Shown here piece by piece: positions 6,493-64,000 of a stretch of DNA of 64,000 nucleotides. Below the pieces are notes generated by a model, which was not told the DNA's origin, did no database searches, and saw only the letters and a list, made by a program, of their open reading frames with translations. The translations under genes were made by a program, and so were the position numbers. The DNA is taken from positions 4,030,001-4,094,000 of the forward strand of contig CM075991.1 of the NCBI GenBank assembly GCA_038087875.1, read 5' to 3'. The number at the start of each line of letters is the position of its first letter. Position 1 is the first letter of the stretch. This DNA is from Malacoraja senta (lineage: Eukaryota).

Positions 6493-6722
6493 TATTCGAC
6501 CTAAGGCTAAGTAACTTAACCCTTCAGAGCTCAAGGTGCACCACAGTCATAGAGGAGGGTACTATCTGATGGTGTTACCAGCCAAAGTGGTGTGTGCACT
6601 ATCCGATGCCCAGTACCTTTGCTTACTGTATTAATGGCCTTGAGTCCCACCCTAGCATTTGGCTTGTAACCTGGTCTTTCTCTTTAACATTGGCCTTCAT
6701 CAGTCAGAGCACTGAGTACCAG

Positions 6723-7145: not shown

Positions 7146-7258
7146 CCCTTGCTGTCCCCTCCCCTTCATCAGCCCTCTGGTTGTCTTCTCCCCTCCCCCA
7201 GCCCTCAGGCTCCTCCTCCGCCTTTTTCCTTTTTTCCTTTCTTCTCCCCACCCCCTAT

Positions 7259-7295
7259 CAGTCTGAAGAAGGGTTTCGGCCCGAAACGTTGCCTA
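7259..7295 (+). ncRNA. putative minimal type I hammerhead ribozyme in PLE terminal repeat
   Basis: CUGAAGA (7263-7269), A, stem II GGGU-UUCG-GCCC, GAAA, self-complementary ACGU stem III, then UH; minimal HHRs are a known feature of PLE termini. Confidence 0.6.
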
Positions 7296-7356
7296 TTTCC
7301 TTCGCTCCATAGATGCTGCCTCACCCGCTGAGTTTCTCCAGCATTTTTATGTACCA

Positions 7357-12059: not shown

Positions 12060-12305
12060 ATAGACACAGAATGCTGGAGTAACTCAGCGGGTCAGGCAGC
12101 ATCTCTGCAGAAACGGAATAGGTGACGTTTCAGGTTGGTACCCTTTCTCAGACTTTTCAGACCCTTCCTCAGTCAATAAGAGGGTCTCGACCCAAAACAT
12201 CGCCTGTTCCTTTTCAGCAGAGATGCTGCCAGACCTGTTGAGTCACTCCAAAATTTTGTGTTTATCTTCAGTGTAAACCAGCATCTGCAGTTCCGTTCCC
12301 TCACA
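12060..12305. mobile_element. palindromic PLE-terminus derivative (two terminal repeats in inverted orientation)
   Basis: agacac.aaatgctggagtaactcagcgggtcaggcagcatctc...cagact followed by its reverse complement; similar units at 12992-13225, 19039-19222, 40870-41100, 50590-50790. Confidence 0.85.
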
Positions 12306-13639
12306 TAGGACAGCACAGCGCAGGAACCGGCCCTGCGGCCCTCAATGTTTGTGCCAAACACAATGGCAAGTTAAACTGATCTGATCTGCCTGTACATGAT
12401 CCATATCCCTCTATTCCTTGCACTTCCATATGCCTTTCTAAAAGCCTCTTAAATGCCACTATCATATCTGCCTCCACCACCACCCCTGGCATTGCGTTCC
12501 AGGCAACCACCACTCTCTGTGTAAAAAACATGTCCCACACATCTCCATTTAACATGCCGCCCTCCCACCATGTAGCTATTCCATCAAGTGTTGGACATTT
12601 CCAATCTGGGAAAAAGATGTCGTAAAGAAACCATGGCATGTAGCCAAAGGCTTCATGTAGCTGAGCCAGTTAGGTATCCGGGACATGTCATATTTATTTC
12701 CCTGTTCCTCCCTTGGTCCCTTTTTACCCCACTCTCACTCACAGCACGGACAGGGAAGAAAGGCGGAGATTCCCAAATTGTGGCATAAACCCAGGAAATG
12801 CTCGAAATGTTCAGCAAGTCAGATCAATGTTTCCCTGTCTAGAACTGGGAGTCAAAGTTAGAGTTTGGCCATTCCGGACAGAGATGGGAAGATATTGCTT
12901 CACCCAGAAATGGGGAATCTGTGGAATAGTCTATCCAAGTGGGCTGTGCTGAATCACGGAGTACGTTCAAGACAATGATGATGGACAAAAAATAGACACA
13001 AATTGCTGGAGTAACTCAGCAGGTCAGGCAACATCTCTGCAGAACATGGATAGGTCGAGGTTTTGGGTCCAGACCCTTCTCAGATGACGTTTCTGGAAAG
13101 GAACCTTCTTATGAAAAAAGGTCTCACTCCAGAACTTCACCTATCCATGTTCTCCAGGGATGCTGCCTGATCCCTGAATTACTCCATCATTTTGTCTTTT
13201 ACCAGCATCTACTCCTTGTATCTACAGATTGATGGATGTTTAGATAATAACGATAATGGTCCTAATGCATTAAGTTGGCGTTGGAATAACAAATGACACC
13301 AAATTATTGAATGGCAATGCAGGCCTGACGGTCTGAATGGCCTATCCTTGCTTCCATTCCTTGTCTTTATAAATTTGTATCGTTAGAATACAAGTCCAGA
13401 TGGGACTCGAAAGAAGTGTAGGTGTTCCGGAACAAAAATCCCCAGTTCATTCCTACTCCCTTTTCTTCTATACGATCGCCAATCTTGAATCTCAATGCAG
13501 TATATTACCCATAGTAGTTTATGCTTTAACTTTGTTTGATAATGTCATGCGTGGCATCATACTAAGACATTTGGAAAGATCCACTGGTTCTCCCTTGTGC
13601 CTCCTGCGGACAACAGTGCCATTGAGCTCAATTTTTATT

Positions 13640-19003: not shown

Positions 19004-19975
19004 ACATCATTTCCTGTGGACAACAAGTAACTTAAATATTGTCTAAGAAGGAACTGCAGATGCTGGAAAAATCAAAGGTAGACAAAAATGCTGGAGAAAC
19101 TCAGCAGGTGAGGCAGCATCTATGGACCCGTCTGAAGAAGGGTCTCGACCTGGAACGTCACCTATTCCTTCGCTCCATAGATGCTGCCTCACCTGCTGAG
19201 TTTCTCCAGCATTTTTGTCTATCTTAAATATTGTCAGTCACTTGGAAATGACCATAACTTACAATTGAGCAGGTGGGCGGGAATTTGTGTTTGCCTGAAT
19301 CCAGTCAAGATTACTGGGATCGACACAAATCTGGTCAATGAGTGAATAGGGGGAAGTTAAAGGGGTGAGAACCCAGACAGAAGAATACTGTTGTAAAATC
19401 CAGCGCAGGAATACAGGCCGGGCTGGGCATTTTTTCCACACCCAGAGGGGAAAAACAAAAGGAAAACTTAACGGAAACAAGCAAGCTGAGCCAATTTCAC
19501 AGACGGATGTCTGATACAGACACATAACTCTAACTCTAGATATGATCAAGAGAGTTTAATTGTTATATGCACCGGATATGAATTGGAAGCTGTAGCTCTA
19601 GTGTGTATGCAATGGATGAGCAAGTGGGATAACACAGAACTGGTTTGAAGGAGTAATTAATGGTCAATGCGTACATGGTTGGCCAAAGGAGACACATTAT
19701 TAAAAGTCTGAAAAAGGGTCTCGACCTGAAACGTCGCCCATTCCTGCTCTCCAGAGATGCTGCCAGACCCGCTGAGTTACTCTAGCATTTTGCCTTCTAG
19801 CCTTCGGTGGGCCAAAGGGCCTGCTTCGGTGCTGTATCTTTCAATCGATTTAGAGGGTGAAATACTGCTCCTCATATCTCAATGGGACAGCATTGATCAG
19901 AGTGGGCAGCACACAGCAGTAGTGCTGCCGCCTAGCACCTGAGACCTGTGTTCGATCCTGGCTACAGGTGATGCA

Positions 19976-20219
19976 GTATGTACAATACAATACAATACAA
20001 TACAATACCATTTATTGTCATTTGAACCTCAAATGAAGTTCAAACGAAATTTGGTTTCTGCAGTCATACAAACAAGTAAAAAGAACCAAGACACAACACA
20101 ATTTACACAAACATCCATCACAGCGAATCTCCTCCTCGCTGTGATGGAAGGCAAAGTCTTATCTCTCCCCTGCACTCCCCATTCTCCTCCCGATGTCAAA
20201 GTCAAAGCCCCCGGCGGGC
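19976..20219 (-). mobile_element. 5'-truncated copy of the Rex-tailed non-coding element at 62503-63388, inserted in a V-SINE (19905-20435)
   Basis: shares ccatcacagcg...cgctgtgatgg, gatgtcaaagtcaaagcccccggcggg and the tgacaataaa tail; ends in (tacaa)n. Confidence 0.8.
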
Positions 20220-27790: not shown

Positions 27791-28419
27791 AAATATGACC
27801 GACAGAGTAACCCCTGCATTCCCTGTCTCTCCATCCCTCCCCCACCCAAGTCACACCAGCTTCTTGTTCTCACCTAGCAAACAGCTAACAATGGCCTGTT
27901 TCCTTTCTCATCGTTGCTTTTTTTTTGCATATCTTTCATTCATTTGTTCTACATCGCCGTCTATATCTCTCATTTCCCTTTCCCCTTATTTGCAGTCTGA
28001 AGAAGGGTCTCGACCCAAAACGGCACCTCTCCAGAGATGTTGAGTTATGCCAGCATTTTGTGTCTATCTTCGGTTTAAACCAGCACCTGCAGTTCCTTCC
28101 TACACATGACTAAACAGACACTTCTACTCAAATCTTAAACATTGGAAGGGGCACCCAAAGGTCCAACCAACAATGCACAAAATTTCTCCGTGCAGTAATA
28201 AGGGCATACTTTGCAGGTCGTACAGAAGGATAAGGCGTGGTAAAAGGCAATAGGCAAAGATGTTTCTATCAGTGGTAGGGACACGTAATCGGCAAAAAGC
28301 ATCACTCAGATTGGGATCATTAATGTCTCTTCTGTAACATAATGCTAGACATTTGCAATCGAGACAAGATTCTCGTCAATACAAGATTCGCTGATTCTCT
28401 GATCCAAAGAATCAAATGG

Positions 28420-33672: not shown

Positions 33673-36600
33673 TTTTGCGTTTTGCCGACGATTGAGATGT
33701 TTGTGTAGTTTGTGCTCCGTGACTTTGTACAAAGGTATTCTTATTAGTCAGCATTGCTGTTGTAGCATGGAAAGGAAGATTGGACCTGTCTCAATATTGG
33801 TGGAATTTTCCACTCAGAAAATTGCTTGGGTCAAATTAGAGAGACAAGTTCCTCACACACTCACGGAGACAACAGCGTTGTCAGAGCTAAGCTCATTGCC
33901 ATTGCCCTTTCCAGTGCATGCTTGAACGAATTACCACTTTACACGAGAGCGTGTAACATTTAAGAATAAGCATGAACTAAAAATAGTTTTCCAAATATCT
34001 CATTTCCTTCCCAGTTCCTTCACATAACATCCCATGCCAGCCTTATATAGTCAGCATTATTCAGGAATGCCACGGAAATGTTTGGCCTCGACCTCTTGCA
34101 CCTCAGCCAACATGCATTTCCAATTAAACATCGTTCGTAGTGCTTACTTTTCCTGGGCTTTTTGTTTTTGCCATGATCGTTGACAATGATCAGTTTTATA
34201 CCCTGCGACTGCGCCCTTTTTAATTGCAAGGGCTCCGAGGACCAAGAGGGTGAAATGATAGCACCTGATAGAAATCGGACCGGGCACCAGAGTCACAACT
34301 CGCCTTCTCCCCTTGCCGATTCCGTTCACATGAAACCCGCTTGAGAATCGTCTAATCTGCGTCGAAAAGGAAACTGAACTCTTGCAGGAGCAGTGGTTCC
34401 TGTGGTGTGTGGGAAGGTTGCTGCAGGTGCTGCTTTACACCAAAGATAGACACAAAATGTTGGGGGAAACGGTCTGTGAATCTGAAGTCGTGCGTTTTCA
34501 CATTTTCCTCCCTACCTCTTGCCTGATGGGAGAGGAGAGAAGAGGGAATGACCAGGGTGAGACTCGTCATTGACTATGCTGGCGGCCTTGTAGAGGCAGC
34601 GTGAGGTGTAGGAAGGAACTGCAGATGCTTGAATACGCCAAAAGCTGACACAACGCTGGACTTACAGCGGGTCAGGCAGCATCTCTGGAGAACAGGAATA
34701 CGTGATGTTTTGGGTCGAGACCCTTCTTCATACAGATAGATGTCTATAGTTCATATAATATTCTTCCCACATCTGAGAATGCGGGGAGATTCGAAAATGG
34801 GGTTAATGAAGGATTAGAGTAAATGGGTGATGGTCGGCAGCGACTTGGTGGGCTGAAGGGCCTGTTTCTGTGCTGTTTGTGCTGTATGCCAAGAATCAAG
34901 AGAGTCAAGAGTTTTATTGCCATGTGTTCCAGATAAAACAATGACATTCTTACTTGCTGCAGCACAACAGAATATGTAAACATAGTATACGGTAAACAAG
35001 ATACATGATAAACAAGAGAGAAATCTACTCTCAATTACTATACATGACTGGCAACTGATTTTAGATGATCAGCCATGATCATATTGAATGGCAGTGCTGG
35101 CTTGAAGGGCCGAATGGCCTACTCCTGCACCTATTTTTCTATGTTTCTATGAAAATTATTTATCTTACAACCTTATCTCTACTGCTTTTCATTTAATAAG
35201 ATACCAACTGTGCACCGAGTCCCTAATAAGGGTTTTGAGTTTGAACTTGAGTTTAGTTGGAGTTAGTTTATTGTCACATGTACCCAGGTACAGTGAGAAG
35301 CTTTTGTTGCATGCTATCCAGTCAGTGGAAAGACCATACATGATTACAGTCGAGCCATCCACACTGTACATATACTTGATAAATACCGTTTAGTGCTAGA
35401 TAAAGTCCAATCAAAGATAGTTCCAGGGTCTCCAATGAGGTAGATGGTAGTTCAGGACCACTCTCGAGTTGTTGGTAGGATGGTTCATCTGCCTGATAAC
35501 GGCTGGGAAGTATGTGCCTGAATCTGGATCTGAATCCGAAGCATTGATTGACCATTTCCCTCCACAGATGCTGCTTGACTCACTGAGTTCCTCCATCAGC
35601 TCTGCCATTTTTTAACCTAAAAAACCAACGTTAACTCCCCTGACCCCGTGATCAATCACCATGTTGACACTCCAGTTCAGCATTGAGAGACCACTGCACC
35701 GTCTGAGGTCTTAACAGGAGACACAAGCATCTGCAGCTGCTGGAATCTTGCACAGAACACAAAAGGAGTAACTCAGCGGGTCAGGCAACATCTCTGGAGG
35801 ACAGGGTCGGGTCGGGTCCCTTCTCCAGTCTCACTCACGACCTTCTGCTGTGATACAGGGCACAAAACACACGCACTTTGATACTGCATAGGGGAATATG
35901 CCTGAGGAAAGGTATCTATCTCACTACCTTTCCAATGTGGCCTTAAATAGAGACCCTCTCAGTTCCCTATGCGGCTGTAAAATATACCAGCAAGGTGTCA
36001 CAGAGTCTTACAGCAAAGATATGGACCCTTCAGCCCACTGTCCATAACAACCACCTACTTACCCTAATCCTACGCCAAGCCCATTAAAACAATTATCTCT
36101 CCATTCCCTTTAGTCCCTGACAGATTCAACTACACATCAGGGGCAATTTAGAGTGGCCACATAACCTACCAACCAGCACCCTCTTGCTTTGTGGGAGGCA
36201 CAGTGACGCAGCGGTAGAGTTGCTGCCTTAGAGCGCCAGAGACCCGGGTTCGATCCTGACTTTGGGTACTGTCTCTATGGAGTTTGTACGTTCTCCCTGT
36301 GACCGTGTGGGTTTTCTCCGGGTGCTCCAGTTTCCTCCCACACTCCAAAGACTTCCAGGTTTGTAGGTTAATTGGCTTTGGTAAAATTGTAAATTGTACC
36401 TAGTGTGTAGGATCGTGCTTGTGTACGGGGTGATCGCTGGTTGGCGTGGACTCGGTGGGCCGAAGGGACTTTTTCCCGTCTGTATCTCTAAACTAAACTA
36501 AACAGTGAAATCCTGGCCTGCCCAACCTTTCCCTATAGCTCAGTGCCTCGAAGTGTGTATAGATTTAACAGTGCTTGCACGGTTCTTTTCTGAAATCAGG

Positions 36601-37078
36601 TTTCAATTGATTTTGGCTCATTCATAAAATGTGTGCACACACATATAAAAATGAAGTTATACCGCCATTAACTTTATAAACCTTTTGGGAAATGCTGGGA
36701 AATAGTCTTCTAAATTACTAAGCAGCCATCTAGGCATGAACAATCCATAGCAATTACTCACACTGACCTTTGAGTATATATTTCCCCCCTGTGACAACAA
36801 TGATCACAGGCTCACTGTGTCTTTAAAGGCCGTTGTGCAATGGAACCACTCCTACTGCCACAAATTACAACTCACAACAACAACACAATCGGAGCAGGTG
36901 AGGTAGGTAGAAGATAATTTACACCTGCAATACCGTTTACACAGGGAAAAGCATTGAAAGGCTGGAGTGACATCAAGGAACCCGACACCGAGTCACTTAT
37001 GGACATAATGGGGGAAGGTGGAGAAACCTTGATGAAAGAGCTCGGTTGTAAGGAGAAACAAGAGAGCCGAATTGCTTT

Positions 37079-37260
37079 AGTAACTCAGCGGGACAGGCAG
37101 CATCTCTGGAGGGAAAGGATGAGTGACGTTTCGGTTCGGATCTCTTCTTCAGACATTTATCCAGACAGTCTGAATAGAGGTTCTGACCCAAAACGTCAAC
37201 ACCCTTTTTCTCCAGAGATGCTGCCTGACTCGCTGAGTTACTCCAGCATTTTGTGCATCT
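37079..37260. mobile_element. palindromic PLE-terminus derivative with spacer TTTATCCAGAC
   Basis: inverted arms; same junction as 63389-63628. Confidence 0.85.
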
Positions 37261-38324
37261 TCCAGCATCACTAGAAGACGAGGATAGGTGACGATTTGGG
37301 TCGGGACCCTTCTTCAGACTGATTGTAGTTGTTGGGGGGGGGGGGGTCACTGGTCATCATGGATGCATTGTGCCGAATAGCTGTTTCCATGCTGCATTGT
37401 TAAAGTCTAAAGCCTAATCTCTAAATGGTTGGCCACCATCTCACTAATTGCACCCATTCTCCTGTGGGTCTCAGACTCCAAGCACTCAAGTGATCGATTG
37501 TTTGCTGCTTTGGTGTCCGAGAGGATTTTATAACACTCATTAGCTTCGAAAACATGGCCACAGTCCACAGAGATGCTTTTATTTAGTTTAGTTTAGTTTA
37601 CAGATACAGCGCGGAAACAGGCCCTTCGGCCCACCGAGTCAGACACGGACCAGCAATCACCGTACACTAGCACTATTCTACACACTGGGGACAATTACCA
37701 AAGCCAATTAACACACAGCCCTGTATGTCTTTGGAGTGTGGGAGGAAACCGGAGCATGCGGTAAAACCCACGCTATCACGGGAAGAAAATGTAAACTCCG
37801 TACAGACAGCACCCATAGTCAGGATCGAACTCTGGTCCCTGGCGCTGTAAGGCAGTGGCTCTACCGCTGCTCCTCATGATCCTTCAATCATTGCCCCATA
37901 AACTTGCTCTCAACATAATTGCCAATGACTGCAATTGATCCTGATGGAACACCTTATATACTTGAAACATATTCCAGCAGAGTTTTGTGGAAGCAACCAC
38001 AGAGATGTAAAGAGAAACCCAGTGATTCTCTGGCCTGCTCCCACTCTATTTGAGATGCTATTCACATCAAAACTTCCTCCCTGCACCAAATAGCATGTTC
38101 TTTGGAAAATGAAGACACTTCGTTCCAATATTGTTCCTCTTGCTTCTGTTTCATGACATCTTTTGGGTTAACATCAGGTTTCCTGAATGTAACAAGCCAA
38201 TCAGCCCATTTTGTGTTGAATAACTGCCAATAAACCAAGAATATTTGCATGTTCATGCAAGTTGCTACGAAGGCTGACTGGTATTGTGATTACCCATAAC
38301 CTTGCACTGTCAACTTGTGGCTTC

Positions 38325-40850: not shown

Positions 40851-41149
40851 CTAATGGGCATCCTTCCTAGAGAGAGACACAAACTGTTGGAGTAACTCAG
40901 CAGGTCAGGCAGCATCTCTGTAAAAAAAGGATGGGTACCCTTCCCAGGTACCGACACGAAACGTCACCCATCCTTTTTCGGAAGGGTCCCGACCCTAAAC
41001 ATGGCCCATCCTTTTTCTCCAGAGATGCTGCCCAACCCGTTGAGTTACTCCAGCAATTGGTGTCCATCTTCGGTATATAGCAGCATCGGCAGTTCTCTTC
41101 TATACTCCTTCCTAGAGAGATTGCAATGAAATATTCTTGCTTGGTTAAC

Positions 41150-42835: not shown

Positions 42836-43475
42836 CTTGGTTGGATAGGGCACCAAGTTCAATACCATCCAGGACATGCATCACCGTAAACTCTCACACT
42901 GTTTGTCACCAGCACGCCATGGTTGCATTGTGTACCATTTGTTCTGCTGCTACTCACCAAGGCTACTGCATCATCTCCTCCAGGAGGACAAGGGCAGCAA
43001 GAAAATGGTAACACCATCAAATTTGGCTCAAGCCTTTCTGCATCTTGGCTTGGAAGTGGATCCCCATTCAGTGTGGTTTAGTTTAGAGATACAGCGTGGA
43101 AACAGGCCCTTCCTACAGACAAGGGACAATTTACCCTTTTACCAAGCCAATTAACCTACAAACTTGTACGTCTTTGGAGTGTGAGAGGAAACGGAAGATC
43201 TCGGAGAAAACCCACGCAGGTCACGGAGAACATACAAACTCCGTACAGACAGCACATACAGTGGCTTGCAAAAGTTTTCATACCCCTTGAAATTTTCCAC
43301 ATTTTGTCACGTTACAACCACAAACGTAAATGTATTTTATTGGGATTTTATGTGATAGACCAACACAAAGTGGTGCATAATTGTGAAGTGGAAGGAAAAT
43401 GATACATGGTTTTCAAATTTTTTTACAAATAAAAAACTGAAAAGTGTCGCGTGAAAAGTATTCAGCCCCCCTGAG

Positions 43476-45432
43476 TCAATACTTTGTAGAACCACCTTTC
43501 GCTGCAATTACAGCTGCAAGTCTTTTGGGGTATGTCTCTAACAGCTTTGCACATCTAGAGACTGAAATTTTTGCCCATTCTTCTTTGCTCAGTTAGATTG
43601 GATGGAGAGCGTCTGTGAACAGCAATTTTCAAGTCTTGCCAGAGATTCTCAATTGGATTTAGGTCTAGACTTTGACTGGGCCATTCTAACACATGAATAT
43701 GCTTTACATAGATACATAGAAAATAGGTGCAGGAGTAGGCCATTCGGCCCTTCGAGCCTGCACCGCCATTCAATATGATCATGGCTGATCATCCAACTCA
43801 GTATCCCGTACCTGCCTTCTCTCCATACCCCCTGATCCCTTTAGCCACAAGGGCCACATCTAACTCCCGCTTAAATATAGCCAATGAACTGGCCTCAACT
43901 ACCCTCTGTGGCAGAGAGTTCCAGAGATTCACCACTCTCTGTGTGAAAAAGTTTTTTCTCATCTCGGTCTTAAAGGATTTCCCCCTTATCCTTAAGCTGT
44001 GACCCCTTGTCCTGGACTTCCCCAACATCGGGAACAATCTTCCTGCATCTAGCCTGTCCAACCCCATAAGAATTTTGTACGTTTCTATAAGATCCCCTCT
44101 CAATCTCCTAAATTCTAGCGAGTATAAGCCAAGTCTATCCAGTCTTTCTTCATATGAAAGTCCTGACATCCCAGGAATCAGTCTGGTGAACCTTCTCTGC
44201 ACTCCCTCTATGGCTATAATGTCCTTCCTCAGATTTGTAGACCAAAACTGTACGCAATACTCCAGGTGTGGTCTCACCAAGACCCTGTACAACTGCAGTA
44301 GAACCTCCCTGCTCCTATACTCAAATCCTTTTGCTATGAAAGCTAACATACCATTTGCTTTCTTCACTGCCTGCTGCACCTGCATGCCTACTTTCAATGA
44401 CTGGTGTACCATGACACCCAGGTCTCGCTGCATCTCCCCTTTTCCTAATCGGCCACCATTTAGATAATAGTCTGCTTTCCTGTTTTTGCCACCAAAGTGG
44501 ATAACCTCACATTTATCCACTTTATACTGCATCTGCCAAACATTTGCCCACTCACCCAGCCTATCCAAGTCACCTTGCAGTCTCCTAGAATCCACCTCAC
44601 AGCTAACACTGCCCCCCCAGCTTAGTGTCATCCGCAAACTTGGAGATGTTGCCTTTGATCTAAACCATTCCATTGTAGCTCTGGCTGTATGTTTAGGGTC
44701 ATTGTCCTGCTGGAAGGTGAACCTCCGCCCCAGTCTCAAGTCTTTTGCAGACTCTAACAGGTTTTCTTCCAAGATTGCTCTGTATTTGGCTCCATCCATC
44801 TTCCCATCAACTCTGACCAGCTTCCCTGTCCCTGCTGAAGAAAACCATCCCCACAGCATGATGCTGCCACCACCATGTTTCACAGTGGGGATGGTGTGTT
44901 CAGGGTGATGGGCAGTGTTCGGTTTCCGCCACACATAGCGTTTTGCATTTAGGCCAAAAAGTTCAATTTTGGTCTCATCTGACCAGAGCACCTTCCTCCA
45001 CATGTTTGCTGTGTCCCCCACATGGCTTGTGGCAAACTGCAAACGGGACTTCTTATGGCTTTTTTTCAACAATGGCTTTCTTCTTGCCACTCTTCCATAA
45101 AGGCCCGATTTGTGGAGTGCACGACTAATAGTTGTCCTGTGGACAGGTTCTCCCACCTGAGCTGTGGATCTCTGCAGCTCCTCCAGAGTTACCATGGGCC
45201 TCTTGGCTGCTTCTCTGATCAATGCTCTCCTTGCCCGGCCTGTCAGTTTAGGTGGACGGCCATGTCTTGGTAGGTTTGCAGTTGTGCCATACTCTTTCCA
45301 TTTTCGGATGATGGATTAAACAGTGCTCCGTGAGATGTTCAAAGCTTGGGATATTTTTTTATAACCTAACCCTGCTTTAAACTTCTCCACAACTGTATCC
45401 CTGACCTGTCTGGTGTGTTCCTTGGGCTTCAT
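43476..45432 (-). pseudogene. Tc1 transposase, disrupted
   Basis: ATG 45432 MKPKEHT..., premature TAA at codon 39 (45316-45318), GRPP, WSDE, QQDND-34 aa-E (NPIE); CR1 insertion between the second D and the E; small deletion near 43587; stop at 43476. Confidence 0.95.
43706..44655 (-). mobile_element. CR1 3' fragment (~950 bp) inserted in the Tc1 transposase; nearly identical to 30158-31105
   Basis: starts at gttgcctt (GNISKFADD region), ends in a catagatacatag tail; cttt duplicated at 43702-43705 and 44653-44656. Confidence 0.96.
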
Positions 45433-46944
45433 GATGCTGTTTGTTCACTAATGTTCTCTAACAAACCTCTGAGGCCTTCACAGAACAGCTGTATTTATAC
45501 TGAGATTAGATTACACACAAGTGGACTCTATTTACTAATTAGGTGACTTCTGAAGGCAATTGGTTGCACTGGATTTTATTTAGGGGTATGTGAGTAAAAG
45601 GGAGTAAAAGGGGCTGAATACTTTTGCACGCGACACTTTTCAGTTTTTTATTTGTAAAAAAATTTGAAAACCATGTATCATTTTCCTTCCACTTCACAAT
45701 TATGCGCCACTTTGTGTTGGTCTATCACATAAAATCCCAATAAAATACATTTACGTTTGTGGTTGTAACGTGACAAAATGTGGAAAAGTTCAAGGGGTAT
45801 GAATACTTTTGCAAGCCACTGTATAGTCAGGATCTAACCCAGGTTACTCTGGTACTGTAAGGCAGCAGCTCTACCACTGCGCCACCATGCCCCCCCAGTG
45901 TAGCTGAATTTAAATCCTGAAACTCCCTATTACATGTCACGTCTGGGGCTCGATAAAGACTGCTGCGGTTCAGTGCAACATTCTCAAAGGGCTGAGGAAT
46001 ATTATCCCAGCCAGCGACACCTACATTCTGCAAGAGTTAGGCAAATGTTTCTGACTGAGAGAATTACCCTGTCAACAGTTCATCTGAGTCTGTCAACGAA
46101 ATGGTGGGAGACTCCATTGGGAATAGCGTGAGCAATGGGTTGCTCAGTACAGAACACTATTGCCGAGTACCATCACTCATTCTCGTTCTAGCAGAAGGTT
46201 GTGTCGATATAATTGTTTTTAATTTAGTTTAGTTTCGAGATACAGCGTGGAAACAGGCCCTTCGGCCCACTGAGTCCCTACCGACCAATGACCCTCACAC
46301 ACTAACACTGTCCTACACACACTGGGGACAGTTCACAATTATACCAAGCCAATTAGCCTACAAACCTGTGCATCTTTGGGGGATGGGAGGAAACAGGAGA
46401 TCCCGGGGGAAAACCCACACAGGTCACTGGGAGAAGGTACAAACTCCGTACAGACAGCACCCGTAGTCAGAATTGAACCCGTATCTCTGCTGTTTTCCAT
46501 ATCGAAGAGTGAATAAGATGCTAATACAATGATAGACACAATCTCCCAATAATAACATGTTAGAACATGCTGCGCACCATAATTTAAAGGGGAAGTACCA
46601 TGTGCGGAGAATGAAGGGTGACTAAAAATGGCAAAAAATATTCCATCATGTGTGAGAAAAGATCAGCAGGCACCACCTTTGGGCAGTTCGCTCGGTGGTG
46701 CAAGAGTCAAGAGTGGTTTATTGTCATATGTCCCAGATACGACAATGAAATTCAGCAGGTAGTGCCGCTGCCTCACAGCTCCAGAGTCCTAAGTCCCTTG
46801 GGTGCTGTCTGTGTGGAGTTTGCATGTTCTCTCTGTAACCATGTGGCTTTTTCCCCTGGGGCTCCAGATTCCTCCCACATCTTAAAGATGGGCTGATGGC
46901 TTATTTGGCTACTCAGTGCAGGCAAAGAGAATGTGACAGGAGGT

Positions 46945-48390
46945 AGACAAAAGTGCTGGAGAAACTCAACGGATGCGGCAGCATCTATGGAGCGAAGGAA
47001 ATAAGCAACGTTTCAGGCCGAAACCCTTCTTCAGACAGATGCCGGGTGGGGGGGGGGTGGCGGGAAAAAGAAAGGAAGAGGAGGAGCCAGAGGGCTGAGG
47101 GAGAGTTGAGAAGGGGAGGAGACACCAAGGGCTACCGGAAATTGGAGAAGTCAATGTTCAAGCTTCTGGTGTGTAGACTGCCCAAGTGGAATATGAGGTG
47201 CTGATCCTCCAATTTTGGGTGGTGCTCACTCTGGCCATGGAGGAAGCCCAGGACAGAAAGGTTGGATATGGAATGGGAGGGGGAGTTGAAGTGCTGAGCC
47301 ACCGGGAGATCAGGTTGGTTAATGCGGACCGAGCAGAGGTGTTCGGCGAAACGATCGCCAAGCCTACACTTGGTCTCACCGATGTAGATCAGCTGACATC
47401 TAGAGCAGCGGATGCAATAGATGAGGTTGGAGGAGGTGCAGGTGAACCTCTGTCGCACCTGGAACGACTGATTGGGTCCTTGAATGGATTTGAGGGGGGA
47501 GGTAAAGCGACAAGTGTAGCATCTCCTGCGGTTGCAAGGGAAAGTGCCCGGGAGGGGGTGGTGCGGGGGGGAAGGGAAGAATTGACAAGGGAGTTACGGA
47601 GGGAGCGGTCTTTGCAGAAAGTAGACGGGGGGGGGGAGGGGGGGAGGAGATGGGAAGATGTGGCGAGTGGTGGGGTCACGTTGGAGGTGGCAAAAATGAT
47701 GGAGGACTATTTGTTGTATGGGATGGCTAGTGAGGTGGAAGATGAGGACTAGGGGGACGCTGCCCTTGTTCCGAGTGGGGGGATGGGGAGAGAGAGCAGC
47801 GTTACGGGGTATTGAAGAGACCCTGGTGAGAGCCTCATCTATAGTAGGGGAGGGGAACCCCCGTTCCCTGAAGAATGAGGACATTTCGGATGCCCTGGTG
47901 TGGAACACCTCATCCTGGGAGCAGATGCGGCGTAGACGGAGGAATTGGGAATAGGGGATGGAGTCCTTACAAGAAGCAGGGTGGGAAGAAGTGTAGCCTA
48001 GATAGCCATGGGAGTCAGTGGGTTTATAGTGGATGTCGGTCAGAAGTCTATCACCTGCGATGTAGATAGTGAGGTCAAGAAATGGTAGGGCAGTGTCGGA
48101 AATGGTCCAGGTGTATTTGAGGGCCGGATGGAAGTTAGTGGTGAAGTTGATGAAGTCAGTCAGTTGTGTGTGGGTGCAGGAGGTAGCACCAATGCAATCG
48201 TCGATGTAGCGCAGGTAGAGGTCGAGGATGGGGCCCTGGTACGTCTCAAACAAGGATTGTTCAACGTACCCTACAAAGAGGCAGGCATAGCTAGGGCCCA
48301 TGCGCGTGCCCATAGCTACGCCTTGTATTTGGAGGAAATGGGAGGAGTCAAACGAAAAGTAATTAAGGGTAAGGACCAGCTCCGCTAGCC
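46945..48390 (-). mobile_element. Penelope-like element, 5'-truncated (RT + GIY-YIG + terminal repeat)
   Basis: MGTRMGPSYA, YLRYIDD, FLD, HYKPTD, SSHP (PLE RT); YIGET GIY-YIG; HHR-like motif at 47003-47038. Confidence 0.95.
47132..48385 (-). pseudogene. PLE pol fragment (RT and GIY-YIG) with frameshifts
   Basis: ORFs 47594-48313 and 47132-47458 are interrupted and do not join into one ORF; breaks lie around G-rich runs near 47490-47645. Confidence 0.9.
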
Positions 48391-50589
48391 GGAGGAGAGT
48401 ATCTGTGACAGGAGATGAGAGGGACTAAATAAGGAGGGGGCGAATGGGATGGAGATGACATGAATGGGCCTAATGGGCTGAATGGCCTCTTTTTGTAATG
48501 CTGTTAAATGATGCTGGTATTTTACAGGAACTAGGAAATTGCGTGTGTAGTTAAATCCTCTCTCTTTGTCCAGAGCAACTTTCCAGCAGTTCAGTACTTT
48601 GTCACAGTTATGCAGACGATTCTTCTTTAGTCCTAAGTTTGTACTTTTACTTGTGGGCTTTAGGTGAAGGTGAATGCTTTGTCTTCTCAGCTGGATGTAA
48701 TACTTGGGAAGGGATTTATTTGGTGGTTCCAATCAATTTTCCTACCTATTAACATTCCACTGTGGCCAGTAAGTCTTTAACATGGCGCCTATTAACTTTA
48801 AACAGGCAATCTCACTCCAGCTGATTAAATGTGGGTGATGAAAACTGATGTGATGCACTTGCAATCCCAAGGGTTTGCTGGGGCTGAGACACATTGCTGG
48901 GATAAAGTGCAGAAAGCTTTGCTCCATGTCTATTCCAATGATGCCAGTGGACGGCTTGATTTTATTCATGTACAGTCTCTTTTCTTACTCGATAGCATAC
49001 AGACAAAAGCTGTTCACAGTACCTCATCCATGTGACAATACTAAACGTAACCTAAAACGTAAATGAAAAGTAACACTATAACATTAAACATAAACTTAAA
49101 TTAAAACTCCGACTAAACTTGATGGTCGGCACAGCGGTAGAGTTGCTGCCTGACAGCACCAGAGACCTGGGTTCGATCCTGACTATGGGTGCCGTCTGTA
49201 CGGAGTTTGTACGTCCTCCCCGTGACCAGGTGCTGGAGCTTTCCTCCCACACTCCAAAGACGTACAGGTTTGTAGGTTAATTGGCTTTGGTTACATTGTA
49301 AATGGTCCGTAGTGTGGAGGTTAGAGCTAGTTTACGGGGTGATTGCTGGACAGTGTAGAAGGCCTGCATTCTAGATATGCTATGTTCAACTGAATGGAAT
49401 ATCTACAGCCTGCATTGTTCAAGTGGAGAATTTGCAAGCCCACTATTTTCTTGGAGTATTTCATTCCGTTGCACTATCTGAGCTGCAAGCCTCATCAAGC
49501 ACTCCTTTCACCTCGAAATCAGAAGGTTGTGCAGTTGGGATTTGACCAGGAATGTTCAGGGAGAATTACACTGCAGAAATTGCCTGTTCAGTCTGAGTCA
49601 GTATGAGTCAGTATAAATTGCCTGTTCAGTCTGAACAAGTATGCATAAATGATCCTGTGCCACTACATTGAAGAAGAGCTGGCAGTTCACACTGGTTTGC
49701 GGGACGACATTATCCTTGAACCACTGTTACTGAAGTGGGTTAGTCAGTCATTCTTCGAGGATTATTAATTTACTACAACAGAGACTGCACTTCAAAAGAA
49801 ATAGCCCTTTGGTGCTCTGCGTGGCACCACATCAATAAACTAATGCCACCTACCCAATACGCCTAGTTAGTCCTCAGTCCTAGTGCATGGAAGGAACACT
49901 GACCAGTTGTTTCGGGAATAGCTTTTCATGTGGTTTCTGGTAGTTTGGATTAGGTTTTTGGTTTAGGTTTGATTTTATTATTGTCGCGTGTATAGTGAAA
50001 AGTTTAGTTATGCATGCTCTCCGATCAGATCAGATATACTATACCCAAATGCAATCAGGTCAAACTGGAGTACAATAGGTAACGCAGAGGGGAAGATACA
50101 GAGTGCAGAATATAGTTCTCAGCATTGTAGCGCACCAGTTCCATAGACAAGGTCCAATGTCAAGTTGTATCGGGTCAAGTTGAATCGGGCAGTGCCCTAG
50201 CTAATGGAAGGGCAATTCAGAAGCCTGATAACAGAGGGGAAGAAAATGCTCCTGAGTCTGGTGGTGTATGCTTTCAAGCTTCTGTACCTTCTGCCGGATG
50301 ATCAGGCAGAAAATGGAATGTCATAAGAAATGTCATAAGAAAGTATAATTAGGCCATTCGGCCCATCAAGTCTACTCTGCCATTCAATCATGGCTGATCT
50401 ATCTCTCCCTCCTAACCCCATTCTCCTGCCTTCTCCCCATAACCTCTATAACCTGTACTAATCAAGAATTTATCTATCTCTGCCTAAAAAATATCCACTG
50501 ATTAGGCTCTACAGCCTTCTCTGGCAAAGAATCCCACAGATTCACCACCCTCTGACTAAAGAATGACTGGGGTGGGACATTGATTATAG

Positions 50590-50790
50590 GCAGACAAAAA
50601 TGCTGGAGAAACTCAGCGGGTGAGGCAGCATCTATGGAGCGAAGGAAAAAGGCAACGTTTCAGGTCGAAACCCTGAAGAAGGGTTTCGACCCTGAAACGT
50701 TGCCTATTTCCTTCGCTCCATAGATGCTGCCTCACCTGCTTCTCCAGCATTTTTGTCTACCTCCAATTTTCCAGCATCTGCAGTCCCTTC
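50590..50790. mobile_element. near-perfect palindromic PLE-terminus derivative
   Basis: agacaaaaatgctggagaaactcagcgggtgaggcagcatctatggagcgaagg mirrored by ccttcgctccatagatgctgcctcacc..tctccagcatttttgtct. Confidence 0.9.
50672..50704 (+). ncRNA. putative minimal hammerhead ribozyme core
   Basis: CUGAAGA, stem II AGGGU-UUCG-ACCCU, GAAA, CGUU. Confidence 0.6.
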
Positions 50791-50799
50791 TTAAGCCTT

Positions 50800-51040: not shown

Positions 51041-53674
51041 ACTTCATTCTTCTTGAATAATTGTGTCAAAGACCTGTAAAGGTTCAGGTAGATTTCCTCA
51101 GTGCGGGCTGAATAATCTCCAAGCTCCATGAAAGTAAATGTCAAACTAAGGCTGGGAGAGATGCTGAGGATTATGCTGACAGGGCATCAAAAACATGTCA
51201 ATAAGTGCAGACAAGTCAATTCTTAGTTTAGTTTAGAGATACAGTGTGGAAACAGGCCCTCGGCCCACTGAGTCTGTGCTGAGCAGCGATCCCTGCACAC
51301 TAACACTACCCTACACACACGAGGGACACAAAAGTTATGTTCTTTTATTCTGAGGCTGCGCCCTCTTGTCCGAGACTCTCCCATAAGTGGAAACATTCTC
51401 TCTATATCCACTCTATCTAGGCCTTCAGGATCAGAGTCACTACTTGCTATCACTGTGCTCCTCACAATGTGGAATTAAAGCCAGTTACATTGCCACATTT
51501 GGACTGCGAATATTAGTTTTAGTTTAGTTTGGAGATACATTGCCGGAAACAGGCCATTCGGCCCACCGAGTCCATGCCCACACACTAACACTATCCTACA
51601 TACACAAGGGACAATTTACAATGATAACAGGCCAATTAGCTCACCAAACCTGTACGTGTTTGGAATGTGGGAGGAAACCAGGGCTCCTGGGGAAAACCCA
51701 CGTGGGTCACGGGGGGCAACATACAAACTCCGTACAGAGTGCACCCATAGTCAGGATGGAACCCAAGTCTAAGGCGCTGTAAGGCAGTAACTCTACCACT
51801 GCGTGCTGTGCTGCCCTGTATATAAATCCAAAAGAATTAGGAGTAGGACAAAAACACTAAGTCCTTCGAGCCCTCTCCATTACTCATCAAGATAATGGTG
51901 CCCAATGTCTTTACTTTCTTAGAAGCTTAAATAGATTTGGGCGTGTCACCGAATACTCCGACAAACCTCAGGAGATATAGTTTAGTTAGAGATACAGCGC
52001 GGAAACAGGCCCTTCAGCCCACCGACTCCGCACCGATCAGCGATCCCCACACATTAACACTATCCTACACACACAAGGGACAATTTTTTTTTTACACATG
52101 CACTAAGCCACTTAACCTACAAACGATTACGTCTTTGGAGTGTGGGAGGAAACCGAAGATCTCGGCGAAAACCCACGAGGTCATGGGGAGAACGTACAAA
52201 CTCCGTACAGACAGCACCTGTAGTCGGGATCGAACATCAGTTCTCTGGCGCTGCAAGGGCAGCAACTCTACCGCTGCATCACTGTGGTCGCCCATATACT
52301 GTGGTCCCCTGACTGGTTGTGTCTTGGCTTGGTACAGCAATGCCGATGCACAGGAGGGTGAGAATCTGCAGAGAGTGATACACTCAGCCGAACCCTCCCC
52401 TACACCTACACGAGATGCTGCCTCAAGAATAGTGCTGTAGGACAGTGCTGTGTAGGATAGTGCTGTCGGACAGTGCTGTAAGATAATGCTAGTGTACGGG
52501 GATCGCTGGTCGGTGCGGACCCGCTGGGCCAAAGGGCCTGCTTCCGCGCAGTACCTCTAAACTACACTAAACTAAACTAAAGGAAGGAAGATCTTGGGGA
52601 AGGTGGGATGAAGGGCTAGATAGGTTCTTTAATACAATGGAATAAAAACGTTTGTTTGGTTTAATTTAGTTTAGAGAAACAGCATGGAAACTGGCCTTTT
52701 GGCCCACCGAATCCGCACCGACCAGCGATCCCTGCACATTAACAGTATCCTACACACACTCGGCACAATTTACATGTATACCAAGCCAATTAACCTACAA
52801 ACCCATACGTCTTTGGAGTGTGAGAGGAAACCGAAGATCTCGGAGAAAACCCACGCAGGTCACGGGAACTCCGTGCAGACAGTACCCGTAGTCAGGATCG
52901 AACCCGGGTCTCTGGCGCTGTGAGGCAGCTACTCTACCTCTGCCCCACCAATAACATTATTAAAGCAAAACTCATAGAGAGCAAATAATATTAACGTTGC
53001 CATCTCATCACTCTGGCTGATGATATATTCAGGCTGTTGCAACTAGAGCAGTCTGTTAAATAACAGTGAAAGTCAGCACTACAAACTGCATGTTGCAACC
53101 TGTACCACAACCAAGCATCGAGATGGACCTCAAGTTAATTGTACAGCAATTCTCTACACCCAAACCTATAGCTTGAAACTTGTTTATGGCTCAATACACC
53201 AGTCACCAGTCCGAGGCAGTGAAACTATTCCTGCAAACATTTTATTCCATCTTTATGCTAAATCAATACAATGTCTTTGTCGCAGATATGAGAGTGGCAT
53301 TTAAGAGGTTTTTAGGAAGCGGGTACTATAGTGGCGTTTAAAAGGCTCTTAGATAGGCACATGGATACACAGGGAATGGAGGGATATGGATCACGTGCAG
53401 GCAGATGAGGTTAACATCTTCAGCACAGACAATGCGGACCGAACGGCCTGTTCCTGTGTTGTACTATTCTATGTGTATGAAGGAACTGCAGATGCTGGTT
53501 TAAATCGAATATAGACACAAAATGCTGGAGTAAAGGGACTGTCCCACTTGGGCGACCTAATCCGCGAGTCCTGAAGAGTGTCTTCGACCTTCAAGCTCGA
53601 GGGCTCTCGCCTGGAAAACCTCGAGCTGGATCGACAGTCCGCATTGAAACCGCGAGCCGGATCGACCAACTGCG

Positions 53675-53699
53675 CACACACACACACACACGCTTATGC

Positions 53700-53790
<91 letters not shown>
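53675..53790. repeat. (CA)n microsatellite
   Basis: directly visible. Confidence 0.97.
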
Positions 53791-53791
<1 letters not shown>

Positions 53792-53899
53792 CGCAGAGGC
53801 GGGGGCCAGGGAAAGCGGGGGAGCGCTGTCTAAAACTCACACCCGCGATGAAGAAGAAGGTAAACAGCTGCACAGTAACGGTAAGTCCTTTAGAGAGCG

Positions 53900-54110
53900 C
53901 GGAGGGGGGGGGGGGGGATGAAGGAGATAGAAGGGGACAAAGGGTGAGAGAAAGGGGAGAGAAGTGGAGAGAAGGGGGGAGAAGGGGGAGAGAAGGGAGA
54001 GAAGGGGGGAGAAGTGGGGGAGGGGAGAGAAGGGGAGAGAAGGGGGGGAGAAGGGGGGAGGGGAGAGAAAGGGAGAGAAGGGGGGAGAAGGGGGGAGAAG
54101 GAGTGGAGAC
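53900..54110. repeat. purine-rich (GnAGAA)n low-complexity tract
   Basis: directly visible. Confidence 0.9.
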
Positions 54111-55704
54111 ACTTTAAAGAAGTACAATAAAGTTTAGCGGGCATTTTACCTCCCGGTCGGTTTTCCTGGGTCCTGAAAACTCCAATGAGCCAATCAAAAT
54201 GCCCAGTCAGCGAAGAAGATTGTCTACGGCTGCCCTCGACTGCCTGTAATTAAATAGCGACCCCACTCCACTGCAATACTACGAGTTAAAAAGACCCATG
54301 CCGACCAAATTTTACTCACGGAAAAGTTTTCAACATGCTGAAAGTTTTTCCGCGACCTAGCTGAGGCCGCGAGTATTCGGGAACTTCGCTCGAGCATGAA
54401 GGAGAGTTCCAGCGGCCTCATAGGACCTCCTAGGACCACGTGTCGACCATGCTGTGAGTTTGAAGGTCGAAGATACTCTTATAAACTCGCAGATTAGGTC
54501 GCCCAAGTGGGACAGCCCCTTAACTCAGCAGGACAGGCAGCATCCCCAGAGAGAAGGAATGAATGACATTTCCGGTCAAGACCCTTCTTCAGTCTCCAGA
54601 GATGCTGCCTATCCCACTGAGTTACTCCAGCATTTTGTGTTTATCTTGTACTATTCTATGTTCTTGATTCAATAGTCACCATGGCTTCCCTTCATGGAAG
54701 GACCACTGATAAGATATTTGGCAGTGGTGGCTTTGTGATGTTCTCATGCAAAACATTTCGTGTTTTATTCTTTACAGCGCAGTTATTAGTGATCTCAGGA
54801 GACCCCCAGACTGCCAACAATGTAGCACACAGCAACACAAGGAAAAACAAAGACACAAAGTGCTGAAGTAACTCAGCGGGTCAGGCAGCATCTCTGGAGA
54901 ACTTGGATAGCTGACATTTTGGGTCTGGACCTTTAACGTAAGGAATGCGGCATCTTATTTATATTCATAGAAAGTTCCCACAATAGCATTGCCATGTTGT
55001 ACAGTTTATACAGATGTTGACTGAAGGAGAATCTTTAGTGTTAGTTTAGTTTATTGTCATGTGCACCGAGGTACAGTGAAAAACTTTTTATTGCGTGCCA
55101 TCCTGTGAACGGAAAGACTATACATGATTAAAATCAAGCCGTCCACAGTCTACAGTTACAGTATAAAGAGAATAGCATATAGTGCAATGTAGAGTCCGAT
55201 TAAAGATAGTCTGAGGGTCTCCAATGAGCTAGGTACAGTAGTAGCTCAGGATGTTGTTGATAGGATGTTCAGTTGCCTGATGACGCTGGAAAGAAATTGT
55301 CTCTGCATCTGGAGGTGTGCGTTTTCACACTTCTGTACCGCTTGTCTGATGGGAGAGGGGAGAAGAGGAGTGACCATGGTGAGACTTTTCCTTGATTATG
55401 CTGGTGGCCTTGCCGAGGCAGGGTGAAGTATAGATGGAAGGGACGTTGGTTTGTGTGATGGTCTGGGCTGCATCCACATCTCTGCAATTTCTTGCGGTCT
55501 TGGATGGAGCTGTTACCGTCCATGGTGTGATGCTTCCTGTTCAAATATATTTTACGGCACATAAGTTATAGGAGTAGAATTAGGCCATTCGGCCCATTGA
55601 GTCCACACTGCCATTCAATCATGGCTGATCTCTGCCTCCGATTCCCTTGAGTAAAGATTGAAATTCCAGCAGGGTGAGTAGTGGAACAGTTGAATTTGGA
55701 AGCA

Positions 55705-60400: not shown

Positions 60401-62502
60401 ATCCTACACACACTAGGTACAATTTTTACATTTACCAAGCCAATTAACCTACAAACCTGTAGGTCTTTGGAGTGTGGGAAGAAACCGGAGATCTCGGAGA
60501 AAACCCACGCAGGTCACGGGGAGAACGTACATATTCCATACAGACAACACCCGTAGTCGGGATCGAACCCGTGTCTCTGGTGCTGCAAGAGCTGTAAGGC
60601 AGCAACTTAGTTTAGTTTAGTTTAGAGATACAGCGTGGAAACAGGCCCTTCGGCCCACCGGGTCTGCGCCGACCAGCAATCACCACACACTGACACCATC
60701 CTGCACACACTAGGAACAATTAACACTTTAAACACGCCAATTAACCTTCAAACCTGTACGTTATTGGAGCGTGGGAGGAAATCGAAGATCTCACGTAGGA
60801 CACGGGGAGAATGTACAAACTCCATACAGACAACACCCGTAGTCGGGATCGGACCCGGGTCTCCAGCGCTGTAAGCACTGTAAGGCAGCAACTCTACCGT
60901 TGCACCACCATGCTACCCTATCTGTAGGGCCCAGTGTTGCTCATCTATAGATGTTTTTTGCCAATGTGTCGTAGAGCCATAGTCATATAGCATGGAAAAA
61001 GGCCCTTCCGTCTAACTTGCCCACGCCAACCAACAGGCCTCAACCACCCTTGTCCCACCTGCCTGCGTTTGGCCCATAGCCTTTAGACCTTAGAGCATGC
61101 AACAAGCCCTTCAGCACACCGAGTCCACGTGGACCAGCGATCACCCCATGCACTAACTAACACACACTGGGGACAATTTTACAACTTTACAACTTTAAAT
61201 TCACAACAAGCCAATTTATTCTACAAACCTGCGCGTCTTTGGAGTGTGGGAGGCAACCGGAGCACCCGGAGAAAACCCACGCGGTCACAGAGAGAACGTA
61301 CAAACTCCGTACAGACAGCACCCGTAGTCAGGACCGAACCCCAGTCAATGGCGCTGTAAGGCAGCAACTCTACCATTCCCGCCACAAAGAAAGCCTTTGC
61401 AACCTTTCCTATCCATGTACCTGTCCAAGTGTCCATTAAGTGTGACAGTACCTGCTCCAACTACCTCCTTTGGCAGCTCATTCCATATACTCATCCTCCC
61501 TTCGTATGAAAGAGTTTCTCTTCAGTATCCTATTACATTTTTTCCCTCTCACCTTAAACATAAGTCCTCTTGTTCTTGATTCCACTATTCTGGGTAAAAG
61601 TTTATGTGCATTTACCCTATCTATTCCCCTTAGTCGGTGAGTCATTTTGCTTGATCCATTGGCAAAGATATTCCCTACCGTGTCTTTGGATAGGAATCTC
61701 CAGTGTCAAACGTTAAATGCAGGAAACTCCCTGCAAGGTCAGGCAGCATCTTTGGAAAGTGAAACAAGGTTAATGTGTCTGCCTGAAAATCCTTTGTGAT
61801 AATTGATGATTTAACCTTCTGGAATTCAGTTTAAAATGAAACAATTATTAACTCCGGGAGCTCCCTTGTAGTTCCTCAAGTTGAGATGACTTGTGTCTAC
61901 TTTGGGTGGTTCAGTGATGCAGCGGGTAGAACTGCCACCTCACAGTGCCAAAGACCAGGGTTCGATCCTGACTACAGGTGCTGTCTGTACGGAGTTTCCA
62001 TGTTCTCCCTGTGACTGTGTGGGGGTTTCTCCGGGTGCTCTGGTTTCCTCCCACATCCCAAAGATGCGCAGGTTTGTAGGTTAATTGGCTTCTGTACATT
62101 GTCCCTAGTGTGAAGGATAGAACTAGTGTATGAGGTGATTGCTGGTCGGCGCGGACACAATGGGCCGAAGGGCCTGTTTCCACGCTATGTCCATAACTGG
62201 TGCATAACTATGCTATCCCAAAGTGGGTGATTCGCCCCACTGTGATGACTGTCCTTTCTAATTCCTATACCTGAGTTTTTGTCATTTTGTCGAACATTAA
62301 ACAGTACGGAAAAAAAGAGACAAAATGCTGGAGTAACAGTTCAGGAAACATCTCTGGAGAACATGGATAGATCGGTGATGTTTCGTGTCGGGACCCTTCT
62401 TCTGTCTGAATCAAACAATTGTTCTGAAGAAGGGTCTCGACCCAAAGCATCACCTATTAATGTGTAGGAAGGAACTGCAGATGCTGGTTTATACTGAAGA
62501 TA

Positions 62503-63388
62503 TAAACCGGTGGGCAGCGCGACTCTCGTCAGCAGCGGCCTCTGCAATCCCTGTCTTTTTATTATTTTTGTCTCGTTTTTATGTAGTTTTTATTTATTTT
62601 TTTGTCGGGGTATGCGTGTGGGGGGGGGGGTGGGGGTGGGGGTGGGGGGGGGGGAACTTTAAAATCTTTCCCCTGCACGGGAGACCTGACCTTTTCTTTG
62701 TCGGGTCTCCGTTGTCGTTGGGGCTGGGCAACGTGGAGCGGCCTCCAGCAGGAACGACCTGGGGCTCCAGTTGCGGAGCTGCGGACTACTCACCGTCACG
62801 GGGCTGGCCGAGTCCGGAGCGGGTGGAGCTGTGGTGGAAACAATTGCTGCTGCGACCCGACCCCCGGAGATTCGGAGGCTACAACCGCGGGTCTGGCGGA
62901 CGGCAACACCGGAAGCCCGCGGGTCCCTGGGGGGAGACCGCTTTTCGGGGCTTCCGCAGCGGCGACTTCTCCCGCCCGAGTTGCGGGGTTGAAGAGCACC
63001 TGGAGCGGGGCTTTACATCGTCGCCCCGCGCGGCTTGGAATGGCCGCGGTCCTTTGCGAGCGCGCGCCGGGGCTCTAACACCAAGACCCGGTGCGCAACC
63101 TTGCATTACCCGGCGTGGCTTTAATGGCCGCGGGATAATCACCATCGCCCGCCGGGGGCTTTGACTTTGACTCTGACATCGGGGGGGGGGGAGTGCAGTG
63201 GAGAGATATGTGTTTTTTGCCTTCCATCACAGCGCTGTGATGGATGTATGTGTAAATTGTGTTGTGTCTCGGGTCTTCTTCGTTTTGTAATGTATGGCTG
63301 CAGAAACGATATTTAGTTTGGACCTCAAGGGGTCCAAATGACAAATTTGTCCAAATGACAAATAAATAATAATTGAATTGAATTGAAT
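62503..63388 (+). mobile_element. ~890-bp GC-rich non-coding retroposon with Rex/Babar-type tail
   Basis: 8-bp TSD tgaagata (62495-62502, 63389-63396); tail tttggacctc..ggggtccaaatgacaaataaa(ttgaa)n. Confidence 0.8.
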
Positions 63389-63628
63389 TGAAGATAGACA
63401 CAAAGTGCTGGAGTAACTCAGCGGGACAGGCAGCATCTGTGGAGAGAATGGATGGGTGACCTTTCGGTTTGGACCTCTTCTTCAGACCTTTATCCAGACA
63501 GACTGAATAGAGGTTCCGACCCAAAACGTTACCCATCCTTTTTCTCCAGAGATGCTGCCTGACTTGCTGAGTTACTCTAGCATTTTGTGCCTTTCCTTGA
63601 TAAACCAGCACCTGCAGATCCTTGTTTC
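63389..63628. mobile_element. palindromic PLE-terminus derivative (left end at 62461-62502, split off by the insertion above)
   Basis: inverted arms with spacer tttatccagac. Confidence 0.85.
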
Positions 63629-64000
63629 AACAGCAGTGCATGGGAACAGGCCCCTCTGCCCAAAATGTCCATGTCACATGTGATGCCGTCATTTTTAAAA
63701 GACCAATGGTACTGAACAGAATTATCTCATTCTTGTCAGAACATCCCTAAGTTAAACAATCATAGAAAATGACAAAAAGCATCTACTTCCCCCACTGGTC
63801 AGGACATTTTGATTTTGCCCGCTGTTGACATGAATCGTACGCTTACAGTCCAGCAGTTGAGAAATGTAAAGAAAGATGTATTAAGTCCAGAATTATCTTG
63901 TCAGGAGGTTAGTGGCCCAGAATAATCGGAAAAGAGCAAAAAACAAAGTGCAGGAGGAACTCAGCAGGCCAAGCAGCTTCTGTGGAGATGCTGCCTGATT

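Follow-up and report, generated by a model that had tools for sequence, protein, structure and literature searches.

Two matching Penelope-like hairpins 26 kb apart are probably a one-off or few-copy secondary duplicate of a decayed fold-back

Two hairpins built from the 3' termini of a Penelope-like element (PLE), at 37079–37260 (copy A) and 63410–63590 (copy B) of the window (the whole 64-kb stretch of DNA analysed here), descend from a single old fold-back, and we consider it likely (probability roughly 0.85) that the pair is a secondary duplicate made once or in a few copies, and not part of an amplified family. In our best reading the pair is an ordinary PLE stub plus one secondary copy, that is, retroelement debris of a described kind, and it does nothing now. 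The original prediction held that the fold-back had been amplified as a non-autonomous family of its own; the data point instead to the outcome it had named as evidence against itself, two or few copies arising by local duplication or conversion.

Both stretches read as they had been quoted, and 163 of 181 aligned columns are identical (90%, longest exact run 28), with the hairpins in the same orientation at an offset of 26,333 bp. Each consists of an antisense left arm and a sense right arm, pseudo-LTRs (pLTRs) with a minimal hammerhead that are joined at their 5' ends; a PLE 3' end is presented by either strand, as had been proposed. Both loci fold into long hairpins (z = -13.6 and -16.1), and within the 64-kb window the junction pattern has exactly two occurrences, against none in 100 shuffles. 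The features of the two loci are as follows.

37061–37078, minus strand: more diverged arm-like stretch beyond the edge of the shared tract, matching copy B at 11/18 positions and probably belonging to the outer portion of an older host arm
37079–37154, minus strand: copy A left arm, an antisense PLE 3' terminus (69/76 identical to the copy B left arm); the shared tract begins no earlier than 37079
37125–37152, minus strand: copy A left minimal-hammerhead remnant, with the core letters kept but a mismatched stem II that is out of register; failed the descriptor scan
37155–37166, plus strand: copy A 12-nt spacer, part of the junction pattern and stutter-like
37167–37262, plus strand: copy A right arm, a sense PLE 3' terminus (69/75 identical to the copy B right arm), ending near the tail-less end of other copies
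37170–37197, plus strand: remnant of the copy A right hammerhead, lacking G8 and G12
37263–37345, minus strand: inner part of the older antisense PLE copy hosting copy A, opening with a 10-nt repeat of 37098–37107 (1 mismatch)
62316–62458, no strand assigned: older, different PLE hairpin whose right arm breaks off at the start of copy B
62461–62502, minus strand: copy B left tail, a full tail
62503–63388, plus strand: later insertion of ~890 bp with a simple-repeat tail and an 8-bp target-site duplication (TSD), separating the copy B left arm from its left tail
63389–63487, minus strand: copy B left arm, with a hammerhead remnant at 63458–63485 (helix III no longer palindromic, stem II out of register)
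63488–63499, plus strand: copy B 12-nt spacer, bridged by a sequencing-run contig with 0 differences at single-copy depth
63500–63637, plus strand: copy B right arm and right tail, with a hammerhead remnant at 63503–63530 (G8 and G12 lost); the tail ends near 63637

The copy at 63 kb proved longer than originally given, with a left tail at 62461–62502 and a right tail reaching ~63637. Copies A and B are each nested inside older arms of the same PLE. The ~890-bp insertion at 62503–63388 is GC-rich, its tail is a pentanucleotide repeat next to the 8-bp TSD, and its 3' part is 75% alike to 20015–20219. A 116-codon frame (36921–37268) runs from unique sequence through the whole of copy A and was considered as a possible exonisation; it had no Pfam match, its first 53 residues had no Atlas match and it had no match in the window, and it was treated as chance.

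Comparison of the arms bears directly on the origin of the pair. Identity between loci (69/76 for left against left and 69/75 for right against right) can be set beside that of the two arms within one locus (61/75 and 59/76) and that of 136 other arm pairs, whose median is 73% and of which only five reach at least 90%, all in one young subfamily. Four arm states are common to A and B and absent from all further aligned arms that extend over the columns concerned (25 rows). The 12-nt spacer matches the arm end at 8 of its last 10 bases and is probably a stutter of the left arm end; in line with the original prediction, it was not found upstream of the hammerhead in any of the 14 other copies compared. 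The shared spacer, the rare changes and the 90% identity together show that the two loci come from one ancestral fold-back. That the spacer and derived variants are common to both loci while the flanks differ was part of the original prediction and was borne out: the two loci have no colinear unique flank in common on either side.

Might the same junction have arisen twice, by a template-guided turn-around in independent insertions? The spacer is stutter-like, and the junction of the hairpin at 12060 has a similar stutter, but the rare shared changes are distant from the junction and are not the same in the two arms, and one template cannot give them twice. A recurrent junction alone cannot produce such arm-specific changes, which argues for common descent; independent recurrence is effectively refuted by them, in agreement with the earlier view that independent inversions were unlikely and a single origin was to be preferred.

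The arms had been identified as PLE 3' termini with hammerhead motifs, and this is upheld by two copies in which the same terminus lies 3' of a GIY-YIG frame and which serve as references for the parent element.

6570–7352, plus strand: GIY-YIG frame (6570–7145) and the same terminus, here with its minimal hammerhead well formed (Pfam GIY-YIG E=1.3e-4, at the cut-off)
46941–48424, minus strand: reverse transcriptase (RT) fragment, GIY-YIG and the same terminus, with RT and GIY-YIG at 47132–48424 (Pfam GIY-YIG E=3.8e-4 and RVT_1 E=0.17, both under the cut-off)

The order in the parent is RT, then a C-terminal GIY-YIG endonuclease, then the terminus. Atlas neighbours of the RT fragment (0.93–0.97) carry HTH_animal and RVT_1; a PDB sequence search with this fragment as query returned no match. 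A C-X4-C-X2-C linker precedes GIY-YIG in both frames, and the accessible portion of PMC8557442 describes a CX2-5CxxC linker in this position as a Neptune trait shared with Nematis and Naiad. The parent is an endonuclease-positive GIY-YIG Penelope-like element, resembling known members of this group, as far as these are covered in the accessible text, in its RT, its GIY-YIG domain and a linker like the Neptune/Nematis motif. Repeats of this kind point to a shark- or ray-type fish as host. A younger PLE subfamily is represented in the window at 7259–7352, 46941–47040, 50592–50797 and 19040–19226, with arms mostly 86–96% alike and hairpin arms 95–97% alike; it has the best-kept minimal hammerhead and would be the better material for ribozyme assays.

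Head-to-head stubs are the ordinary insertion form of the parent PLE. Nine were recognised in the window by inspection and the seven other than the pair each have their own junction; six of these seven have a tail of ~40 nt on one side only, and in five the TSD score exceeds the 95th percentile of 60 random placements (scores of 14, 15 and 16 against a null maximum of 12, and two of 8, which are marginal). Inverted, 5'-truncated copies with head-to-head junctions and a one-sided tail of 30–40 bp are the pattern described for endonuclease-positive PLEs in the accessible parts of PMC3846280 and PMC8557442, to which the window's hairpins are alike in the head-to-head 5' junction, the optional tail and, in the other hairpins, the TSDs; according to the portion of PMC11167929 available, RT has two internal start sites, to which the tail corresponds. 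The pair has the head-to-head 5' junction. Unlike the insertions described in these sources, however, A and B comprise pLTR only and share one junction, copy B has a tail at both ends and neither copy has an outer TSD. Since copy B has two tails and an outer TSD is lacking at both copies, at least one of the copies must be secondary or rearranged.

Several other arrangements were seen in the window. Junctions at 12141–12185, 12992–13125 and 40925–40990 are built from stuttered arm pieces, which suggests repeated re-priming at the turn-around, and PLE arm fragments lie tail-to-tail, ~165 bp apart, at 35551–35830. A PLE hairpin at 53476–54648 with a TSD of 16–18 nt is split at TAA by a ~1-kb element (53534–54520) with terminal inverted repeats of ~27 nt and a TAA duplication, which we take to be PIF/Harbinger-like. 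The element at 43256–45824 has inverted ends of ~200 nt that are 98% alike and a transposase frame, presumably of Tc1/mariner type, and is broken by a CR1-type fragment.

None of the four ribozyme cores in the pair is intact when scored on the features given for minimal hammerheads in the accessible text of PMC4209133. Well-preserved copies of the family, for example that at 7263, match this description in having the core, one extra base before stem II, a G-C closing pair and a palindromic 15.2–16.2, whereas all four cores of the pair fail at least one of these features. The right cores of both copies are without G8 and G12 of the conserved C3–A9/G12–A14 core. In the left cores the core letters are present, but stem II is preceded by three extra bases where one is expected; stem II of copy A also has a mismatch, and the helix III palindrome (15.2–16.2) is gone from copy B. 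The original prediction of one intact-looking core fails on this point, the left core being damaged in both copies. A relaxed hammerhead scan of the window passed four sites, the copy B left core among them only in damaged form; Rfam at gathering thresholds gave 0 matches in the window, a result that is uninformative for minimal hammerheads. Nine of 63 columns that are fixed in both loci for both arms mismatch between the arms, so that the copied template had already lost pairing without compensation; the common ancestor of the pair was already decayed. Sequence upstream of the hammerhead at 7240–7262, 27970–27996, 4171–4195 and 37320–37345 is pyrimidine-rich with a YAG end, like a 3' splice site; Drosophila Penelope has an intron ending at helix I, according to the part of PMC4209133 available.

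The history begins, as the anatomy of the loci shows, with a short insertion of ordinary kind by the GIY-YIG PLE, which placed two 5'-truncated 3' termini head to head with a stuttered 12-nt junction. Neutral decay of this hairpin at its site then cost it the pairing of the arms and the ribozyme core on the right. Its central ~180 nt were subsequently copied once, or a very few times, between sites 26 kb apart; the copying itself is evident and its mechanism is what we infer. Both copies drifted by ~5% each thereafter. For the copying step we give about an even chance to a DNA-level route, either ectopic gene conversion or homology-directed repair, with the neighbouring hairpin serving as template for the mending of a broken PLE arm. 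Such repair or conversion is favoured by the closeness of the loci, by the small number of copies, by the missing outer TSD and by a tract that ends within homologous sequence. High identity that ends inside homologous sequence is a trait of conversion tracts and is seen at the left edge of copy A, where there are 7 differences in 18 positions (P ~6e-4 at the tract's rate, a post hoc value) within still-homologous sequence; at the right edge of the shared tract the drop is less clear. Ectopic conversion between human LTRs, in the accessible portion of PMC4921805, involves tracts of up to 450 bp and favours linked cis donors. The present pair is alike in that the tract length is in range, the donor is near in cis and the tract ends inside homology; it differs in that the tract carries a fold-back junction, and it is known from the sequence of one locus pair. 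Against a DNA-level route, the right end of copy A lies near the tail-less RT-start end and abuts the 10-nt TSD-like repeat, a position more in keeping with retro-copying than with a repair boundary placed at random.

Retrotransposition in trans, once or in a few copies, is the next explanation to be weighed, and we hold it a serious rival, though less probable than repair or conversion. PLE RT, starting from a pLTR end within a transcript that had read through the decayed hairpin, would copy across the fold-back and insert into a nearby pLTR, with the 5' end joined by homology. Dead fold-back stubs in host transcripts might in this manner be re-copied in trans, from either strand, into neighbouring pLTR remnants; the pair would then be, equally tentatively, mother and daughter or two of a handful. 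The left end of copy B (62461) is an authentic PLE end with a full tail, and the right end of copy A (37262) lies near the tail-less end with the 10-nt repeat; both stand beside a broken host arm. In the accessible text of PMC11167929, reverse transcription by the PLE protein of Anolis begins inside the RNA, at two sites that bound the tail, and does not depend on ribozyme cleavage; nicking by this protein of its own pLTR is also proposed there. In Adineta, pLTRs sufficed to move unrelated DNA in trans (PMC3846280, in the part available). With internal starts and no need of a working ribozyme, PLE RT could re-copy dead stubs in trans. The 10-nt repeat (from 37263 onward, against 37098–37107) is, however, internal and ambiguous, and is also expected from arm homology alone. 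Moreover, with 10–30 copies in an assumed genome of 2–3 Gb, a sister within 64 kb would have P <0.001 unless insertion were local, and no report of local PLE hopping was found among the papers listed in a literature search.

The number of junction copies was estimated from sequencing runs, four of the 22 listed public runs (X1, X3, X5 and X11) being compared with 63340–63700 at 88% likeness; at this load some features go uncounted in the run depths. In X1, a single 119-nt contig bridges 63427–63545 with 0 differences at a depth of 4.92, against 5.24 for a unique-flank contig, although contig depth is not copy number. This contig does not branch anywhere along its 119 nt, which means that the assembly took up no near-identical sister. 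The X1 depths added up to 32.8 in the junction bin against 9.3 million on the left arm, or ~7 single-copy equivalents, of which ~6 are unexplained and could be real sisters; copy A was not among the eight X1 pieces listed. X3, X5 and X11, which are labelled as three other organisms, gave 7.3, 5.6 and 9.1 junction copy-equivalents. Junction depth per million of arm depth was 2.4–2.9 in these three runs and 3.5 in X1, or 3.0 without its own contig. The three runs had no cover at 63691–63700 and no spacer-crossing piece among the eight listed per run (424,307 others), a hole that proves nothing. In simulations with assumed seed and length settings, a sister was detected with a frequency of 0.83–0.98 at 4.5% from the master and 0.44–0.63 at 7.5%. 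None of the 22 listed runs is an RNA run holding the locus.

An assembly artefact was considered and rejected, the run contig being exact across the copy B junction, the copies differing by 10% and their flanks being unrelated. Metagenome matches to the junction pattern at 24 loci had no arm sequence beyond 20–34 nt and were attributed to chance; the junction pattern had 0 matches in prokaryote genomes and a generic fold-back pattern 0 in viral contigs, collections that are not expected to contain DNA of this animal.

These depths bear on the possibility that a fixed fold-back was amplified as a dispersed non-autonomous family of tens to thousands of copies, which we regard as improbable. The shared spacer and changes between different flanks are what such a family would give, and the ~6 unexplained junction equivalents in X1, with 6–9 in the three other runs, would accommodate a small old family. 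Two copies per 64 kb drawn from a dispersed family would, however, imply ~31,000 per Gb (lower 95% bound ~3,800), and many dispersed junction copies were found neither in the window, which holds two, nor in the run depths. The junction contig is unbranched and at single-copy depth; at 5% from a master, 20–24% of copies would keep any given 31-mer and so would raise that depth. The ancestor had decayed without compensation and neither copy has outer TSDs of its own. On these grounds the amplified family of the original prediction was not sustained: a large dispersed family is very unlikely, while there could be a handful of junction copies beyond the pair. A fixed-junction PLE hairpin family was not found in the openly accessible literature, a scope that excludes Repbase, Dfam, subscription papers and supplements.

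An old segmental or tandem duplication, with flanks later lost or replaced, is less probable still. Same orientation, proximity, 10% divergence and a region dense in later insertions are all compatible with it, but there is no colinear unique sequence on either side and both flanks would have to have been lost exactly at the arm ends.

The reading of the pair as a secondary duplicate of a PLE stub also places it in relation to non-LTR retrozymes, which are non-autonomous PLE derivatives and, in the accessible portion of bioRxiv 10.64898/2026.07.22.740005, are reported in the one chondrichthyan sampled. The pair is alike in being non-coding, pLTR-derived and hammerhead-bearing. Retrozymes, however, comprise head-to-tail tandem units with an intact type I hammerhead in each, whereas the pair is inverted, has dead cores and gives no sign of amplification.

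As it stands the finding is of little importance beyond offering a small and clear example of a hairpin junction passing from one repeat to another. If the copying in trans from RNA were true, the pair would represent RNA-templated, local, second-hand spread of genomic hairpins; and if that route held genome-wide, the internal priming seen in vitro would let PLE protein re-mobilise dead stubs locally.
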